This document shows, one piece after another, positions 1 to 8,395 of a DNA stretch of 8,395 nucleotides. Each line of letters starts with the position of its first letter. Position 1 is the stretch's first letter. This DNA is from a virus (taxonomy: Duplodnaviria; Heunggongvirae; Uroviricota; Caudoviricetes), in the IMG/VR virus record IMGVR_UViG_2690316099_000020; one strand, written 5' to 3'. The notes under the pieces are model-generated. The model did no database searches. It was given only the letters and a program-made list of their open reading frames with translations, and was not told where the DNA came from. A program made the position numbers and the translations under genes.

Positions 1-3000
1 CTGGTTGTCTGGAGATTCAGGGGGCCAGTCTAATTGCCGACGGAAAAACGCTGGTTATTGGCAATACAGAGAATGACGGAGCTGTTGACTCTATTGCTGG
101 TACCGGGTTGATCACCAAAACAGGTTCCGGCGATCTGGTACTTAATGCAGATAACAATGACTTTACTGGTGNNNNNNNNNNNNNNNNNNNNNNNNNNNNN
201 NNNNNATGCAGATTGAAAACGGTGAAGTTACCCTGGGCCGCAGCAACTCCCTGATGAATGTCGGCGATACGCATTGCCAGGACGATCCGCAAGACTGCTA
301 CGGTCTGACGATAGGGAGTATTGATAAGTACCAGAATCAGGCAGAGCTAAACGTTGGCTCCACCCAACAAACCTTTGTGCACTCATTGACGGGCTTTCAG
401 AATGGCACTTTAAATATCGATGCTGGTGGCAATGTTACTGTTAATCAAGGCAGTTTTGCTGGCACCATCGAAGGTGCTGGTCAGCTCACCATTGCGCAAA
501 ACGGCAGCTACGTGCTGTCGGGGGCGCAGTCGATGGCGCTAACCGGCGATATAGTCGTTGATGATGGTGCGGTGCTTTCGCTGGAAGGCGACGCGGCAGA
601 TCTCGCCGCTCTCCAGGACGATCCGCAGTCGATCGTGTTAAACGGCGGTGTGCTCGATCTCTCTGATTTCTCCACCTGGCAGAGCGGCACATCATACAAT
701 GATGGCCTTGAAGTCAGTGGCAGCAGCGGAACGGTTATCGGCAGTCAGGATGTGGTAGATCTTGCAGGTGGCGACAATTTGCATATCGGCGGCGACGGGA
801 AAGATGGCGTCTACGTGGTGGTCGATGCGAGCGACGGGCAGGTAAGTCTGGCAAACAATAATAGTTATTTGGGCACAACACAAATCGCCTCCGGTACGCT
901 GATGGTGAGCGACAACTCGCAGCTTGGAGATACCCACTATAACCGCCAGGTTATCTTTACCGATAAGCAACAAGAAAGCGTGATGGAGATTACTGCCAAT
1001 GTCGATACTCGCTCTACGACGACTGAGCATGGGCGTGATATTGAAATGCGCGCCGACGGTGAAGTGGCAGTTGATGCGGGGGTAGACACGCAGTGGGGCG
1101 CACTGATGGCTGACAGCAGCGGGCAGCATCAGGATGAGGGTAGCACATTTACTAAAACGGGGGCGGGTACGCTGGAGCTGACCGCCAGCGGTACAACGCA
1201 GTCGGCAGTACGTGTCGAAGAAGGCACCCTGAAAGGCGATGTTGCGGATATCTTTCCTTATGCTTCGTCACTGTGGGTCGGTGATGGGGCGGCGTTCGTT
1301 ACTGGCGCGGATCAGGATATTCAGTCTATCGATGCTACTTCCAGCGGCACTATCGATATCAGCGATGGTACGGTTTTGCGTCTGACCGGGCAGGATACTT
1401 CCGTCGCCCTTAATGCCTCATTGTTTAACGGCGATGGGACGCTGGTGAATGCTACCGATGGCGTGACGTTGACAGGTGAGCTTAATACCAACCTTGAAAC
1501 TGACAGCCTGACCTATCTTGCCGACGTGACGGTTAATGGTGATCTGACCAATACGTCCGGTGCGGTTAGCCTGCAAAATGGCGTCGCTGGCGATACGCTG
1601 ACGGTAAACGGTGATTATACCGGCGGCGGTACGCTACTGCTCGATAGCGAATTAAACGGCGATGACTCGGTAAGCGATCAATTGGTGATGAACGGTAATA
1701 CTGCTGGCAATACCACGGTGGTGGTTAACTCTATTACAGGGATTGGTGAGCCGACATCGACAGGCATTAAAGTGGTTGATTTCGCAGCTGATCCCACGCA
1801 GTTTCAAAACAATGCGCAGTTCAGTCTGGCAGGCAGCGGCTACGTCAATATGGGAGCGTATGACTACACGCTGGTGGAAGATAACAACGACTGGTATCTG
1901 CGATCGCAAGAAGTAACGCCGCCATCGCCACCTAATCCCAACCCGACTCCCGATCCTGATCCCACACCGGATCCTGACCCAACCCCCGACCCGGCCCCTA
2001 CGCCTGCTTACCAGCCGGTGCTGAATGCCAAAGTTGGCGGTTATCTCAATAACCTGCGGGCGGCAAATCAGGCGTTTATGATGGAGCGACGCGATCACGC
2101 TGGTGGCGATGGTCAGACGCTGAATTTACGTGTTATCGGCGGACGTTATCATTACACGGCGGNNNNNNNNNNNNNNNNNNNNNNNNNNNNNNNNNNNNNN
2201 NNNNNNNNNNNNNNNNNNNNNNNNNNNNNNNNNNNNNNNNNNNNNNNNNNNNNNNNNNNNNNNNNNNNNNNNNNNNNNNNNNNNNNNNNNNNNNNNNNNN
2301 NNNNNNNNNNNNNNNNNNNNNNNNNNNNNNNNNNNNNNNNNNNNNNNNNNNNNNNNNNNNNNNNNNNNNNNNNNNNNNNNNNNNNNNNNNNNNNNNNNNN
2401 NNNNNNNNNNNNNNNNNNNNNNNNNNNNNNNNNNNNNNNNNNNNNNNNNNNNNNNNNNNNNNNNNNNNNNNNNNNNNNNNNNNNNNNNNNNNNNNNNNNN
2501 NNNNNNNNNNNNNNNNNNNNNNNNNNNNNNNNNNNNNNNNNNNNNNNNNNNNNNNNNNNNNNNNNNNNNNNNNNNNNNNNNNNNNNNNNNNNNNNNNNNN
2601 NNNNNNNNNNNNNNNNNNNNNNNNNNNNNNNNNNNNNNNNNNNNNNNNNNNNNNNNNNNNNNNNNNNNNNNNNNNNNNNNNNNNNNNNNNNNNNNNNNNN
2701 NNNNNNNNNNNNNNNNNNNNNNNNNNNNNNNNNNNNNNNNNNNNNNNNNNNNNNNNNNNNNNNNNNNNNNNNNNNNNNNNNNNNNNNNNNNATGGCGTAC
2801 CGCGGTTGGTGTCACACCAACATTAGATCTGAATTATTATCACGATCCCCATGCGACGGAAATTGAAGAAGATGGCAGCACTATCAGTGACGATGCGGTG
2901 AAGCGACGGGGTGAAATAAAAGTGGGAGTCACGGGCAATATCAGTCAGCGAGTGTCCCTGCGCGGCAGCGTGGCGTGGCAGAAAGGGAGTGATGATTTTG

Positions 3001-3168: not shown

Positions 3169-3891
3169 TCACTTATTCTGCGTGTGCAGCATATAGTTCA
3201 CATCCACGCCGGGGCCGAGCTTAAAGGAATTAGTGATCGGGTTGTAATGTAGCCCGGTTATATGTCGCTCTTTTAAACTGGTCTGATCCACCCAGCCAAG
3301 CAGCTCTGCCGGTTTAATAAACTTCTTCACATCATGCGTACCTTTGGGCACCATGCGCAAAATATATTCCGCGCCAACCACCGCCATCAGCCATGACTTG
3401 CCGTTGCGGTTAAGCGTCGAGAAAAAGACATCGCCGCCTGGTTTCACCAGTTGCGCACAGGCTCTGACCACTGACTGCGGATCGGGTACGTGCTCCAGCA
3501 TCTCCATGCAGGTCACCACATCATACTGCCCGGCATGTTTTGCCGCGTGCTCTTCCACGGTTTCCTGCACGTAATCCACCTGAATGCCGCTTTCCAGCGC
3601 GTGCAGCTTTGCCACCTGCAATGGCTCAAAGCCCATATCCAGACCGGTCACCGTCGCGCCTTCGCNNNNNNNNNNNNNNNNNNNNNNNNNNNNNNNNNNN
3701 NNNNNNNNNNNNNNNNNNNNNNNNNNNNNNNNNNNNNNNNNNNNNNNNNNNNNNNNNNNNNNNNNNNNNNNNNNNNNNNNNNNNNNNNNNNNNNNNNNNN
3801 NNNNNNNNNNNNNNNNNNNNNNNNNNNNNNNNNNNNNNNNNNNNNNNNNNNNNNNNNNNNNNNNNNNNNNNNNNNNNNNNNNNNNNNNNNN
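3169..3891 (-). CDS. ubiG: Bifunctional 3-demethylubiquinone 3-O-methyltransferase / 2-polyprenyl-6-hydroxyphenol methylase UbiG; the 5' third lies in the N-run
   Basis: The - strand ORF 3169..3651 translates to [77 protein letters not shown]...NYMLHTQNK, which I recognise as the C-terminal 160 residues of E. coli UbiG. Codons for ..EGAT precede it at 3652-3663. Stop is TGA (reverse complement of 3169-3171). The start at 3891 is inferred from the 240-aa length of UbiG and assumes the N-run preserves length. Confidence 0.9.
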
Positions 3892-4197
3892 NNNNNNNNN
3901 NNNNNNNNNNNNNNNNNNNNNNNNNNNNNNNNNNNNNNNNNNNNNNNNNNNNNNNNNNNNNNNNNNNNNNNNNNNNNNNNNNNNNNNNNNNNNNNNNNNN
4001 NNNNNNNNNNNNNNNNNNNNNNNNNNNNNNNNNNNNNNNNNNNNNNNNNNNNNNNNNNNNNNNNNNNNNNNNNNNNNNNNNNNNNNNNNNNNNNGGTTNN
4101 NNNNNNNNNNNNNNNNNNNNNNNNNNNNNNNNNNNNNNNNNNNNNNNNNNNNNNNNNNNNNNNNNNNNNNNNNNNNNNNNNNNNNNNNNNNNNNNNN
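3666..4197. other. Unresolved N-run covering the ubiG 5' end, the divergent ubiG-gyrA intergenic region and gyrA codons 1-24; a 4-nt island 'ggtt' survives at 4095-4098
   Basis: Run of n characters with one tiny unmasked island. Confidence 0.99.
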
Positions 4198-6755
4198 ATG
4201 CGATGTCGGTCATTGTTGGCCGTGCGCTGCCGGATGTCCGAGATGGCCTGAAGCCGGTACACCGTCGCGTACTTTACGCCATGAACGTACTAGGCAATGA
4301 CTGGAACAAAGCCTATAAAAAATCTGCCCGTGTCGTTGGTGACGTAATCGGTAAATACCATCCCCATGGTGACTCGGCGGTTTATGACACGATCGTCCGT
4401 ATGGCGCAGCCATTCTCGCTGCGTTACATGCTGGTAGACGGTCAGGGTAACTTCGGTTCCATCGACGGCGACTCTGCGGCGGCAATGCGTTATACGGAAA
4501 TCCGTCTGGCGAAAATTGCCCATGAACTGATGGCCGATCTCGAAAAAGAGACGGTCGATTTCGTTGATAACTATGACGGCACGGAAAAAATTCCGGACGT
4601 CATGCCAACCAAAATTCCTAACCTGCTGGTGAACGGTTCTTCCGGTATCGCCGTAGGTATGGCAACCAACATCCCGCCGCACAACCTGACGGAAGTCATC
4701 AACGGTTGTCTGGCGTATATCGATGATGAAGACATCAGCATTGAAGGGCTGATGGAACACATCCCGGGGCCGGACTTCCCGACGGCGGCAATCATTAACG
4801 GTCGTCGCGGTATTGAAGAAGCTTACCGTACCGGTCGTGGCAAGGTGTACATCCGCGCCCGTGCTGAAGTGGAAGTCGACGCCAAAACCGGGCGTGAAAC
4901 CATTATCGTCCACGAAATTCCGTATCAGGTAAACAAAGCGCGCCTGATCGAGAAGATTGCGGAACTGGTAAAAGAAAAACGCGTGGAAGGCATCAGCGCG
5001 CTGCGTGACGAGTCTGACAAAGACGGTATGCGCATCGTGATTGAAGTTAAACGCGATGCGGTCGGTGAAGTTGTGCTCAACAACCTCTACTCCCAGACCC
5101 AGTTGCAGGTTTCTTTCGGTATCAACATGGTGGCATTGCACCATGGTCAGCCGAAGATCATGAACCTGAAAGATATCATCGCGGCGTTTGTTCGTCACCG
5201 CCGTGAAGTGGTGACCCGTCGTACTATTTTCGAACTGCGTAAAGCTCGCGATCGTGCTCATATCCTTGAAGCACTAGCCGTGGCGCTGGCGAACATCGAC
5301 CCGATCATCGAACTGATCCGTCATGCGCCGACGCCTGCAGAAGCGAAAACTGCGCTGGTGGCTAATCCGTGGCAGCTGGGCAACGTTGCCGCGATGCTGG
5401 AACGTGCTGGCGACGATGCTGCGCGTCCGGAATGGCTGGAGCCAGAGTTCGGCGTGCGTGATGGTCTGTACTACCTGACCGAACAGCAAGCTCAGGCGAT
5501 TCTGGATCTGCGTTTGCAGAAACTGACCGGCCTTGAGCACGAAAAACTGCTCGACGAATACAAAGAGCTGCTGGATCAGATCGCGGAACTGTTGCGTATT
5601 CTTGGTAGCGCCGATCGTCTGATGGAAGTGATCCGTGAAGAGCTGGAGCTGGTTCGTGAACAGTTCGGTGACAAACGTCGTACTGAAATCACCGCCAACA
5701 GCGCAGACATCAACCTGGAAGATCTGATCACCCAGGAAGATGTGGTCGTGACGCTCTCTCACCAGGGCTATGTTAAATATCAGCCGCTTTCTGAATACGA
5801 AGCGCAGCGTCGTGGCGGGAAAGGTAAATCTGCCGCACGTATTAAAGAAGAAGACTTTATCGACCGACTGCTGGTGGCAAACACGCACGACCATATTCTG
5901 TGCTTCTCCAGCCGTGGTCGCGTCTATTCGATGAAAGTTTACCAGTTGCCGGAGGCCACTCGTGGCGCGCGCGGTCGTCCGATCGTCAACCTGCTGCCGC
6001 TGGAGCAGGACGAACGTATCACCGCGATCCTGCCAGTGACCGAGTTTGAAGAAGGCGTGAAAGTCTTCATGGCGACCGCTAACGGTACTGTGAAGAAAAC
6101 CGTCCTCACCGAATTCAACCGTCTGCGTACCGCCGGTAAAGTGGCGATCAAACTGGTTGAAGGCGATGAGCTGATCGGCGTTGACCTGACCAGCGGCGAA
6201 GACGAAGTAATGCTGTTCTCCGCCGAAGGTAAAGTGGTGCGCTTTAAAGAGTCTTCTGTCCGTGCGATGGGCTGCAACACCACCGGTGTTCGCGGTATTC
6301 GCTTAGGTGAAGGCGATAAAGTCGTCTCTCTGATCGTGCCTCGTGGCGATGGCGCAATCCTCACCGCAACGCAAAACGGTTACGGTAAACGTACCGCAGT
6401 GGCGGAATACCCAACCAAGTCGCGTGCGACGAAAGGGGTTATCTCCATCAAGGTTACCGAACGTAACGGTTTAGTGGTTGGCGCGGTACAGGTAGATGAC
6501 TGCGACCAGATCATGATGATCACCGATGCCGGTACGCTGGTACGTACTCGCGTTTCAGAAATCAGCATCGTGGGCCGTAACACCCAGGGCGTGATCCTCA
6601 TCCGTACTGCGGAAGATGAAAACGTAGTGGGTCTGCAACGTGTTGCTGAACCGGTTGACGAGGAAGATCTCGATACCATCGACGGCAGTGCCGCGGAAGG
6701 GGACGATGAAATCGCTCCGGAAGTGGACGTTGACGACGAGCCAGAAGAAGAATAA
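4128..6755 (+). CDS. gyrA: DNA gyrase subunit A
   Basis: Visible from 4203 as [71 protein letters not shown].., which is E. coli GyrA from residue 26. Active-site Tyr122 is TAT at 4491-4493. GyrA box QRRGGKG is at 5805-5825 (residues 560-566). The acidic C-terminal tail ..[17 protein letters not shown] ends with TAA at 6753-6755. Start 4128 is back-calculated from Met26 at 4203. The in-frame upstream extension to 3540 in the ORF track is an artefact of translating N as X. Confidence 0.95.
5354..5361 (+). other. Chi site 5'-GCTGGTGG-3'
   Basis: Exact octamer match on the + strand, inside gyrA. Confidence 0.9.
5870..5877 (+). other. Chi site 5'-GCTGGTGG-3'
   Basis: Exact octamer match on the + strand, inside gyrA. 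Confidence 0.9.
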
Positions 6756-6774
6756 TTTTACTTCTTCATGCCAA

Positions 6775-6792
6775 AAGGGAGCTATCTCCCTT
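6775..6792 (+). terminator. Short stem-loop AAGGGAG-CTAT-CTCCCTT followed by GTTTG, 20 nt after the gyrA stop
   Basis: Perfect 7-bp inverted repeat (6775-6781 / 6786-6792) with a 4-nt loop. The GGGAG arm could alternatively serve as a Shine-Dalgarno sequence if a downstream gene started at TTG 6791. Confidence 0.3.
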
Positions 6793-6802
6793 GTTTGAAT
6801 TG

Positions 6803-6832
6803 AAAAGTCCAGGCTGCAAAGTCTGGGCTTTT
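6803..6832 (+). terminator. Candidate intrinsic (possibly bidirectional) terminator downstream of gyrA
   Basis: AAAAGUCCAGGC (6803-6814) pairs with GUCUGGGCUUUU (6821-6832) around loop UGCAAA: 12 bp including two G-U pairs. The A-tract on the 5' side and U-tract on the 3' side are the arrangement seen in bidirectional rho-independent terminators. Confidence 0.45.
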
Positions 6833-6843
6833 GTCGTATTAGG

Positions 6844-7078
6844 NNNNNNNNNNNNNNNNNNNNNNNNNNNNNNNNNNNNNNNNNNNNNNNNNNNNNNNNN
6901 NNNNNNNNNNNNNNNNNNNNNNNNNNNNNNNNNNNNNNNNNNNNNNNNNNNNNNNNNNNNNNNNNNNNNNNNNNNNNNNNNNNNNNNNNNNNNNNNNNNN
7001 NNNNNNNNNNNNNNNNNNNNNNNNNNNNNNNNNNNNNNNNNNNNNNNNNNNNNNNNNNNNNNNNNNNNNNNNNNNNNN
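6844..7078. other. Unresolved N-run (235 nt) hiding the yfaA start region
   Basis: Run of n characters. Confidence 0.99.
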
Positions 7079-8395
7079 GAAAAAACGTTGTCGCCGCTGG
7101 TGGTGCACAACAATCTGCAAATCGATCTCAATGAGCCGGACCTCTTTCTCGACAGCGACTCTCTGAGCCAGCTTCCCAAAGATCTCCTCACCATTCCGTT
7201 TCTCCACGATGTTCTGAGTGAAGATTTCGTTTTCTATTATCAGAATCATGCCGATCGTCTGGGCATTGAAGGCAGCATTCGTCGCATTGTCTATGAACAC
7301 GATCTCACGCTGAAAGATAAACTCTTTTCGTCACTCTTAGATCAGCCCGCGCAGGCTGCGCTATGGCACGATAAACAAGGCCATCTTTCACATTACATGG
7401 TGCTGATCCAGCGCAGTGGTTTAAGCAAACTGCTGGAGCCATTGTTGTTTGCCGCTACCAGCGACAGCCAGTTAAGCAAAACGGAAATCAGTAGCATCAA
7501 GATAAATAGTGAAACTATTCCTGTTTATCAGTTGCGCTATAACGGCAATAACGCCCTGATGTTCGCGACTTATCAGGACAAGATGCTGGTGTTTTCCAGC
7601 ACGGATATGTTGTTTAAAGATGATCAGCAGGATACCGAAGCCACGGCGATCGCAGGTGATTTGTTGAGCGGCAAAAAACGCTGGCAAGCAAGCTTTGGCC
7701 TGGAAGAGCGTGCTGCTGAAAAAACGCCAGTACGCCAGCGCATCGTGGTCAGCGCCAGGTTGCTGGGTTTTGGCTACCAGCGGTTAATGCCTTCTTTTGC
7801 TGGCGTACGCTTCGAAATGGGTAACGACGGCTGGCACAGTTTTGTGGCGTTAAATGATGAATCCGCCAGCGTAGATACCAGTTTCGATTTTACGCCGGTC
7901 TGGAACAGTATGCCTGCCGGGGCCAGCTTCTGTGTGGTGGTGCCGTATTCACACGGTATTGCCGAAGAGATGCTTTCGCACATCAGCCAGGAAAACGACA
8001 AGCTGAATGGGGCGTTAGACGGTGCCGCGGGGCTGTGCTGGTATGAAGACTCAAAATTGCAAACCCCGCTGTTTGTCGGTCAGTTTGATGGCACTGCCGA
8101 ACAGGCGCAATTGCCAGGGAAACTGTTTACGCAAAATATTGGTGCGCACGAAAGCAAAGCGCCAGAAGGTGTTTTGCCGATAAGCCAGACTCAGCAGGGC
8201 GAAGCGCAAATCTGGCGTCGCGAAGTGAGTTCCCGATACGGTCAGTATCCGAAAGCGCAGGCGGCGCAACCCGATCAATTAATGTCGGATTATTTTTTCC
8301 GCGTGTCGCTGGCGATGCAAAACAAAACGCTGCTTTTCTCCCTCGATGACACGCTGGTTAATAACGCCCTGCAAACACTGAATAAAAACCGCCCG
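6962..8395 (+). CDS. yfaA: YfaA-like DUF2138-family protein, 3'-partial (runs off window end); start not visible
   Basis: The frame starting at 7079 is open for all 439 codons to the window end (EKTLSPLVVHNNLQIDLNEPDLFLDSDSLSQLPKDLLTIPFLHDVLSEDFVFYYQNHADRLGIEGSIRRIVYEHDLTLKDKLF...LVNNALQTLNKNRP) with E. coli-like codon usage, while all other frames are broken. Identity is inferred from position immediately downstream of gyrA on the same strand; I cannot confirm it residue by residue. The start coordinate is a placeholder inside the N-run; the true start could be anywhere from TTG 6791 to about 7078. Confidence 0.65.
7096..7103 (+). other. Chi site 5'-GCTGGTGG-3'
   Basis: Exact octamer match on the + strand. 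Confidence 0.9.

Follow-up and report, generated by a model that had tools for sequence, protein, structure and literature searches.

The window, the whole 8,395-nt stretch of DNA that was analysed, ends inside a gene whose first codons are hidden by a run of Ns, and it raises three linked questions: which gene this is, where its reading frame begins, and what its product does. The original prediction took the open frame to be a partial yfaA gene, the head of a poorly characterised cluster around an alpha-2-macroglobulin (A2M) homologue. We followed this up with translation, database searches, comparison with unmasked relatives, structure prediction and a search of the literature.

Identity of the partial gene

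The window is E. coli chromosomal DNA that contains the 3′ part only of the autotransporter gene yfaL (plus strand), ubiG (minus strand), gyrA (plus strand, stop codon at 6753–6755) and, at its end, a partial yfaA. The features that bear on yfaA are collected in Table 1. The visible part of the gene was translated in frame 1 as 439 codons with no stop or frameshift. Compared with Pfam, this translation matched PF09909 (DUF2138) with an E-value of 3.3e-233 and a score of 775.8 bits (the cut-off of the family is 22 bits), over profile positions 32–477 of 560, and a relaxed Pfam scan (E ≤ 10) returned no second family. The top megablast match shares 99.8% identity with the fragment and bears the annotation ‘yfaA: DUF2138 domain-containing protein’, as does every listed match. 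The open frame, the profile score and this match bear out the original prediction of a partial yfaA/DUF2138 gene with ~440 visible codons, including the DUF2138 profile comparison that it had proposed for the 439-aa fragment.

Relative to strain 730V1, the fragment covers residues 39–477 of a 562-aa protein with two amino-acid differences, and the 3′ end of the gene (~85 codons and the stop) lies beyond the window edge. The full-length 730V1 relative scored 959 bits on PF09909; on the NCBIfam equivalog NF008500 it scored 907 bits (cut-off 529), a value that belongs to this 99.8%-identical full-length relative, the window gene being partial. It is thus virtually certain that the gene is E. coli yfaA, of which the region comprises the 5′ three-quarters. 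By megablast, a yfaA match was present in 5396 of the 5426 complete E. coli genomes and lacking in the other 30. Over positions 4198–8395, identity to the window was at most 99.1% in any complete E. coli genome, and the Escherichia loci compared included no identical one. When yfaA was compared with its counterparts in K-12, the cryptic Escherichia clades, E. whittamii, E. albertii and Superficieibacter, dN/dS was 0.06–0.14. The gene is therefore real and evolves under purifying selection. The yfaA gene of the window is therefore a known, annotated core-genome gene with a characterised orthologue, and its identification holds no surprise for specialists.

Table 1. Positions in the window of the yfaA coding sequence, its landmarks and the elements upstream of it
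Feature	Position	Strand	Basis
First hairpin past the gyrA stop, AAGGGAG-CTAT-CTCCCTT, then GTTTG	6775..6792	+	Terminator-like site in relative L001 (13758–13775); RNA fold
Second hairpin, 13 bp, AAAAGUCCAGGCU-GCAA-AGUCUGGGCUUUU	6803..6832	+	RNA fold; visible in the window
Masked stretch (N-run); by homology, third hairpin, AAGGA, yfaA ATG and codons 1–38	6844..7078	+	Relative L001 (13827–14000); annotation
yfaA coding sequence, codons 39–477 of 562 (periplasmic DUF2138 domain)	7079..8395	+	Translation, megablast, Pfam, alignment, dN/dS
Most conserved block of the family, codons 61–120	7145..7324	+	Conservation against pLDDT in 10-residue blocks; invariant columns
Cys323 codon, TGT	7931..7933	+	Invariant in 99 homologues; read in the window
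Cys358 codon, TGC	8036..8038	+	Second invariant cysteine; read in the window

Organization of the yfaA cluster

The window itself ends inside yfaA, and the genes that follow were read in relatives. In all six E. coli genomes inspected, yfaA is followed by yfaT, yfaS, yfaQ and yfaP. This order, with yfaA first, had been given in the original prediction and is also that of the K-12 annotation. In relatives, the stop codon of yfaA overlaps the start codon of yfaT (ATGA). Domain searches in these relatives assigned to yfaT a DUF1175 domain and a weak NlpC/P60 match, to yfaS (1504 codons) MG2, bait-region, A2M and bMG10 domains, to yfaQ two DUF2300 domains and a SpoIID-like stretch, and to yfaP a DUF2135 domain. 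In YfaS of 730V1 the CxEQ motif is absent, and GVIN occupies the aligned thioester site. In some Pseudomonas, the operon-type macroglobulins carry CVEQ.

When one genome per species was scanned, 400 stretches that encode a YfaA relative were recovered, and the best 80 of these loci were compared. YfaA, YfaT, YfaS, YfaQ and YfaP are encoded in the same order and on the same strand in all 80, save for two contigs (L039 and L047) whose ends fall within the cluster. In the Pseudomonas-group loci, a paralogue of YfaP is encoded directly upstream of the YfaA homologue wherever the contig reaches upstream. Among the best 80 loci, no such paralogue precedes yfaA in those of Enterobacterales, and in the window this place is taken by gyrA and its terminator. 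The Escherichia cluster is a five-gene variant without the upstream magA-like gene.

Of the six E. coli genomes, four (730V1, JNE151685, Eco_24-2013 and UTME-7) carry an intact yfaS. In the other two it is a pseudogene; these are K-12, where the annotation agrees with the original prediction, and LHM10-1, where an internal stop is found at codon 844, and yfaA is intact in both. The two broken copies, and the 30 complete E. coli genomes without a yfaA match, would be expected if yfaA in this strain were what remains intact of a cluster in decay; with yfaS broken as in K-12, YfaA would then have neither a partner nor a current function. We consider this unlikely, as the genomes with an intact yfaS include the three closest to the window, yfaA itself is under purifying selection, and its visible codons are free of stops and frameshifts.

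Relationship to MagB of Pseudomonas aeruginosa

The magABCDEF operon of P. aeruginosa comprises PA4492–PA4487 (PMC3735191). MagB (PA4491) is a 64-kDa protein of COG4685 with one predicted transmembrane helix at amino acids 26–48 (mBio 2013, Table 2; PMC3735191); MagA and MagF share COG4676, MagC belongs to COG3234, MagD is the A2M protein (COG2373), and MagE belongs to COG5445 (PMC3735191). The annotation of PA4491 reads ‘Uncharacterized protein YfaA’ (PMC10977779), and the JGI name of the Pseudomonas matches in our searches is ‘uncharacterized protein YfaA (DUF2138 family)’. Because the six-gene order of the Pseudomonas-group loci is that of magABCDEF and PA4491 carries the YfaA annotation, YfaA is, on synteny, size, topology and annotation, the positional and family orthologue of MagB; this assignment is argued from published tables and from Pseudomonas-group loci other than that of P. 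aeruginosa, which lies outside the 80 loci compared. E. coli YfaA is 44–49% identical to the Pseudomonas-group homologues that were recovered.

The Mag proteins have been studied at the biochemical level. Co-immunoprecipitation from the inner membrane recovers MagB together with MagD (PMC3735191; PMC5764988), the MagB–MagD complex has a 1:1 composition, and MagB is required for the ternary complexes that include MagA or MagF (PMC5764988). When magB is deleted, MagD is degraded in the periplasm, and its processing from 165 to 100 kDa is lost (PMC5764988). MagD traps a protease non-covalently once its bait has been cleaved (PMC3735191; PMC5764988).

Predicted architecture of YfaA

In relatives, the N-terminus of YfaA reads MSGEKKAKGWRFYGLVGFGAIVLLSAGVWALQYAGSGPEK, in which four K/R residues are followed by ~19 hydrophobic residues. 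A hydrophobicity scan predicted a single transmembrane helix at approximately residues 13–31 and found no comparable hydrophobic stretch in the rest of the protein; in the AlphaFold2 model the helix spans residues 11–34. An equivalent N-terminal anchor is present in 99 full-length homologues with the exception of one (P0009), the N-terminus of which looks frameshifted. In 22 of the 99 (the P. fulva group), a lipoprotein signal (LLAAC↓G) replaces the helix. Since either a helix or a lipobox is found across the homologues, what the family conserves is the attachment to the membrane of a domain that is otherwise periplasmic. The whole protein contains two cysteines, Cys323 and Cys358. As these are its only cysteines and both are invariant in the 99 homologues, they may form a periplasmic disulfide.

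The AlphaFold2 model, built from the 99-sequence alignment (mean pLDDT 79, pTM 0.75), consists of the N-terminal helix and a large α/β domain. The most conserved part of the family, residues 61–120, reaches 3.6–3.85 bits per column and contains many invariant residues (e.g. in EDFVFYY and DRLG). The same residues have the lowest pLDDT of the model (41–55), except for residues 61–70, for which it is 81. Because the highest conservation coincides with the lowest model confidence, residues 61–120 are a candidate partner-binding (docking) or mobile segment. Two usable leads emerge here, the two invariant cysteines and the strongly conserved segment that the model leaves unresolved.

A comparison of the family profile with all PDB chains gave no match at E ≤ 1. 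A Foldseek search of the PDB gave a single match at E ≤ 0.001, the Treponema pallidum lipoprotein TP0453 (3k8i; E = 5e-4, probability 0.99). The match is weak, with TM-scores of 0.21 when normalized to the query length and 0.40 to the target length and an rmsd of 10.7 Å, and in practice the fold of YfaA has no solved representative. TP0453 reportedly opens amphipathic helices for membrane insertion. YfaA could by this likeness do more than anchor passively and be a TP0453-like module that senses membranes or lipids, in which the conserved, flexible segment 61–120 would change its conformation upon envelope damage and gate the activation or processing of the macroglobulin. The low model confidence of the most conserved block and the need for MagB in the cleavage of MagD (PMC5764988) would both be in line with such a module. 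It is nonetheless quite improbable, given the poor superposition and the absence of a sequence relation to PDB entries, and low pLDDT may equally reflect the limits of the model. Very improbable, by our estimate, is the wider proposal that DUF2138 proteins (YfaA and MagB), of unsolved fold, would be conformational switches and not just anchors, in which residues 61–120 sense damage to the membrane or envelope and license both the cleavage and the activation of the thioester-less macroglobulin. If true, it would account for the selection on yfaA even in strains in which yfaS is broken.

Position of the yfaA start codon

In 730V1, LHM10-1 and K-12, in which this region is unmasked, the ATG of yfaA is located 148 nt past the gyrA stop codon, and from there it is 114 nt, or 38 codons, to the base that matches position 7079. 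In relatives the ATG is preceded by the Shine–Dalgarno sequence AAGGA. The start of yfaA in the window therefore lies inside the N-run, as the original prediction had supposed in the first of its two scenarios. The masked bases that precede 7079 are expected to encode MSGEKKAKGWRFYGLVGFGAI.. after AAGGA and the ATG. The ATG would nominally fall at 6965 if the mask were right-justified, all coordinates within the mask being nominal.

The N-run itself is 235 nt long, and the homologous stretch measures 174 nt in every genome compared, an excess of 61 nt. In agreement with this, the region that spans the spacer is 839–840 nt long in all 60 best E. coli matches, as against 901 nt in the window, and none of these 60 genomes has a gyrA–yfaA spacer of the length that the N-run implies. 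On both flanks of the mask, the window sequence is the same as in the relative L001. Each of the five N-runs in the window exceeds the real sequence that it stands for, the excess being 32, 127, 90 and 61 nt (the 90 nt refer to two adjacent N-runs at 3666–4197 counted together), and the lengths of the masks are for this reason unfit for arguments about reading frame.

The visible part of the spacer is occupied by the two hairpins listed in Table 1. The first carries GGGAG in its 5′ arm and TTG 6791 in its 3′ arm. The second is preceded by an A-run and followed by a U-run, has TTG 6800 directly on its 5′ side, and is likely to be the intrinsic terminator of gyrA. In L001, a 152-nt stretch that covers the 148-nt spacer folds into three hairpins with a minimum free energy of −56.3 kcal/mol (z = −4.39), and none of 200 shuffled sequences folded as well. 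When the unmasked spacer of a relative was compared with Rfam, only chance snoRNA matches far below threshold resulted, and no known RNA is therefore concealed by the mask; a scan of the gyrA–yfaA spacer for sigma-70 promoters returned no sites.

The second scenario of the original prediction, a start at TTG 6791 or TTG 6800 after GGGAG that would extend the protein to an N-terminus of ..KSPGCKVWAFVVLG, has practically no chance of being correct. If the N-run is taken at face value, both codons share the frame of 7079, but this apparent link depends on the N-run being 235 nt rather than the real 174 nt. In unmasked 730V1 the TTG frame reads LFELKSPGCKVWAFVVLGHGKVWLCP and closes at a stop after 26 codons, lies 113 nt from the ATG and is thus out of frame with yfaA. 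Both TTG codons sit in or beside the terminator hairpins, one 5′ arm of which supplies the GGGAG, and the alignment of PF09909 position 32 with the first residue of the fragment fits ~38 missing residues and not 93–96. The TTG starts were rejected on these grounds, and they are refuted for all relatives. The questions about the start and about the downstream genes are artefacts of the masking and of the window edge.

Proposed function of YfaA

By analogy with MagB, YfaA probably anchors the thioester-less A2M homologue YfaS at the inner membrane. YfaA would be a bitopic inner-membrane protein with an N-in/C-out orientation, composed of a short, positively charged cytoplasmic N-terminus and one helix, which in the window fall under the mask, and a large periplasmic DUF2138 domain, to which the visible codons belong. 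This domain would bind YfaS, the counterpart of MagD that is encoded two genes downstream, in a one-to-one complex, and the binding would both tether YfaS to the inner membrane and shield it from degradation; one-to-one binding, tethering and stabilization are known from Pseudomonas only, and their E. coli equivalents are inferred. Tethered in this way, YfaS would inhibit, by a bait-and-trap mechanism, proteases that gain entry to the periplasm. The YfaA–YfaS core would act together with accessory proteins related to the cell wall, alongside YfaT (NlpC/P60-like), YfaQ (SpoIID-like, with two DUF2300 domains) and YfaP. As the Escherichia cluster has no upstream magA-like gene, the composition of the complex would differ from that in Pseudomonas. 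The present analysis establishes the identity of the gene and the position of its start, the membership of YfaA in its family, the conserved order of the cluster, purifying selection on yfaA and the presence of a membrane anchor across the family.

An observation that runs counter to the anchor role is that K-12 and LHM10-1 have retained an intact yfaA next to a yfaS pseudogene. A role of YfaA that is independent of the macroglobulin is conceivable, since yfaA is intact where yfaS is broken.

The original prediction described the genes of the cluster as all of unclear function, and this description is partly outdated: MagA–MagF of P. aeruginosa have been studied biochemically, and MagB has been found to anchor and stabilize MagD (PMC3735191; PMC5764988). 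For E. coli YfaA, a literature search found no experiment. The type II macroglobulin system has been proposed to be a periplasmic ‘innate immunity’ device, and the link to MagB supplies E. coli YfaA with a concrete, testable function.

Comparison with known systems

The closest counterpart is YfaA of E. coli K-12 (b2230, NP_416733), a 562-aa protein encoded at the same place in the chromosome, with gyrA upstream and yfaT-yfaS-yfaQ-yfaP downstream. Over the visible part, the K-12 gene and the window are 98.4% identical at the nucleotide level, and the differences are no more than allelic; the K-12 copy of the partner gene yfaS is a pseudogene.

T. pallidum TP0453 (PDB 3k8g/3k8i) resembles YfaA as its sole PDB fold match at E ≤ 0.001, and both are membrane-associated envelope proteins. 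However, TP0453 has 247 residues compared with 562 in YfaA, is 10% identical to it, superimposes with the low TM-scores given above and has no sequence relationship to it, which makes it a lead and not a member of the family.

MagB and YfaA share the COG4685/DUF2138 family, a similar size (589 and 562 aa, respectively) and a single N-terminal transmembrane helix, and both are encoded directly upstream of a DUF1175 gene and a gene for a thioester-less macroglobulin. The partner macroglobulin is thioester-less in MagD and is without CxEQ in 730V1 YfaS, which is encoded by a relative of the window locus. The two systems differ in that the Pseudomonas operon has six genes and the Escherichia cluster five, the upstream magA paralogue being missing, and in that the biochemistry comes from MagB only.

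The type I A2M proteins, E. coli YfhM/ECAM (which is associated with PBP1c) and Salmonella Sa-A2M, are likewise periplasmic, inner-membrane-associated protease traps with an A2M fold (PMC5764988). In contrast to the system described here, they possess a CXEQ thioester and their own lipid anchor, are encoded beside pbpC and have no DUF2138 partner (PMC3735191). Anchoring is thus provided by the macroglobulin's own lipid in type I (PMC3735191), and by a separate protein, MagB or, as predicted here, YfaA, in the systems to which yfaA belongs.

Sequence and lineage of the window

The masked runs in the window do not match their counterparts in length. In all Escherichia genomes compared, they exceed the homologous stretch by 32, 127, 90 and 61 nt, with the 90-nt value referring to the adjacent runs 3666–4094 and 4099–4197 counted jointly, and the 34-nt run stands in place of just 2 nt. 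Either the lengths of the masks are unfaithful, or this genome contains insertions precisely at the masked sites. Two open reading frames that had been listed across masks (206–2866 and 3540–6755) were rejected as artefacts.

None of the 5426 complete E. coli genomes matched gyrA and yfaA together (window 4198–8395) at more than 99.1% identity. For yfaA alone, identity reached 99.8%, and the flanks at 6500–7400 were matched at up to 100%, in other strains. Based on these comparisons, the lineage of this DNA appears to be mosaic or poorly represented. The quinolone-resistance-determining region of gyrA (window 4365–4388, codons ∼80–87) carries the wild-type Ser83 and Asp87.

Comparison loci and membrane anchors

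In E. coli UTME-7 (20484–21137 of its locus), rcsC directly follows yfaP, and the atoSC/atoDAEB region, which is present in K-12 and 730V1, is missing. Three other loci (L003, L005 from Shigella flexneri SFBU0723, and L011 from E. coli ECMA0423) show a 1-nt shift in offset relative to the window every 50–300 nt, and their yfaS and yfaQ matches are broken into fragments. Both features look like uncorrected long-read indel errors and not biology.

P0069 and 21 similar proteins, all of them 547-residue YfaA/MagB homologues from the P. fulva group, have a lipoprotein signal (LLAAC|GQD) and no N-terminal transmembrane helix. Judged from these sequences, the type of anchor is exchanged in this group, and membrane attachment is retained.

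Coordinates of masked runs and macroglobulin features
Feature	Location	Strand	Compared with
N-runs (masked)	window 172–205, 2163–2791, 3666–4094, 4099–4197, 6844–7078		Escherichia homologous stretches
Operon-type macroglobulin genes	loci L019–L082, e.g. L019 about 12579–17039		E. coli YfaS 1039–1042 (alignment)
Second A2M-like match	loci L019, L025, L033, L037, L052, L054, about 4500–6800	minus	YfaS (identity)

Macroglobulins of the operon type

Several Pseudomonas-group genomes contain a second, distant A2M-like match (20–22% identity to YfaS). It lies upstream of the mag-type cluster, at a distance of a few kb, and is encoded on the other strand.

According to a published rule, the A2Ms of six-gene operons do not have a thioester motif. 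We located the site by alignment to residues 1039–1042 of E. coli YfaS in the Type II macroglobulin genes that adjoin yfaA/magB homologues, using the best 80 of 400 stretches coding for a relative, drawn from one genome per species. GVEQ occupies the site in 41 of these loci, and GVIN or GVVN is found in 13, from Escherichia and its relatives. Because the canonical site reads CVEQ in 22 of the 80, from the Pseudomonas/Aquipseudomonas group, the rule of motif absence, as assessed at the level of the sequence motif, does not hold in about one quarter of the sampled species.
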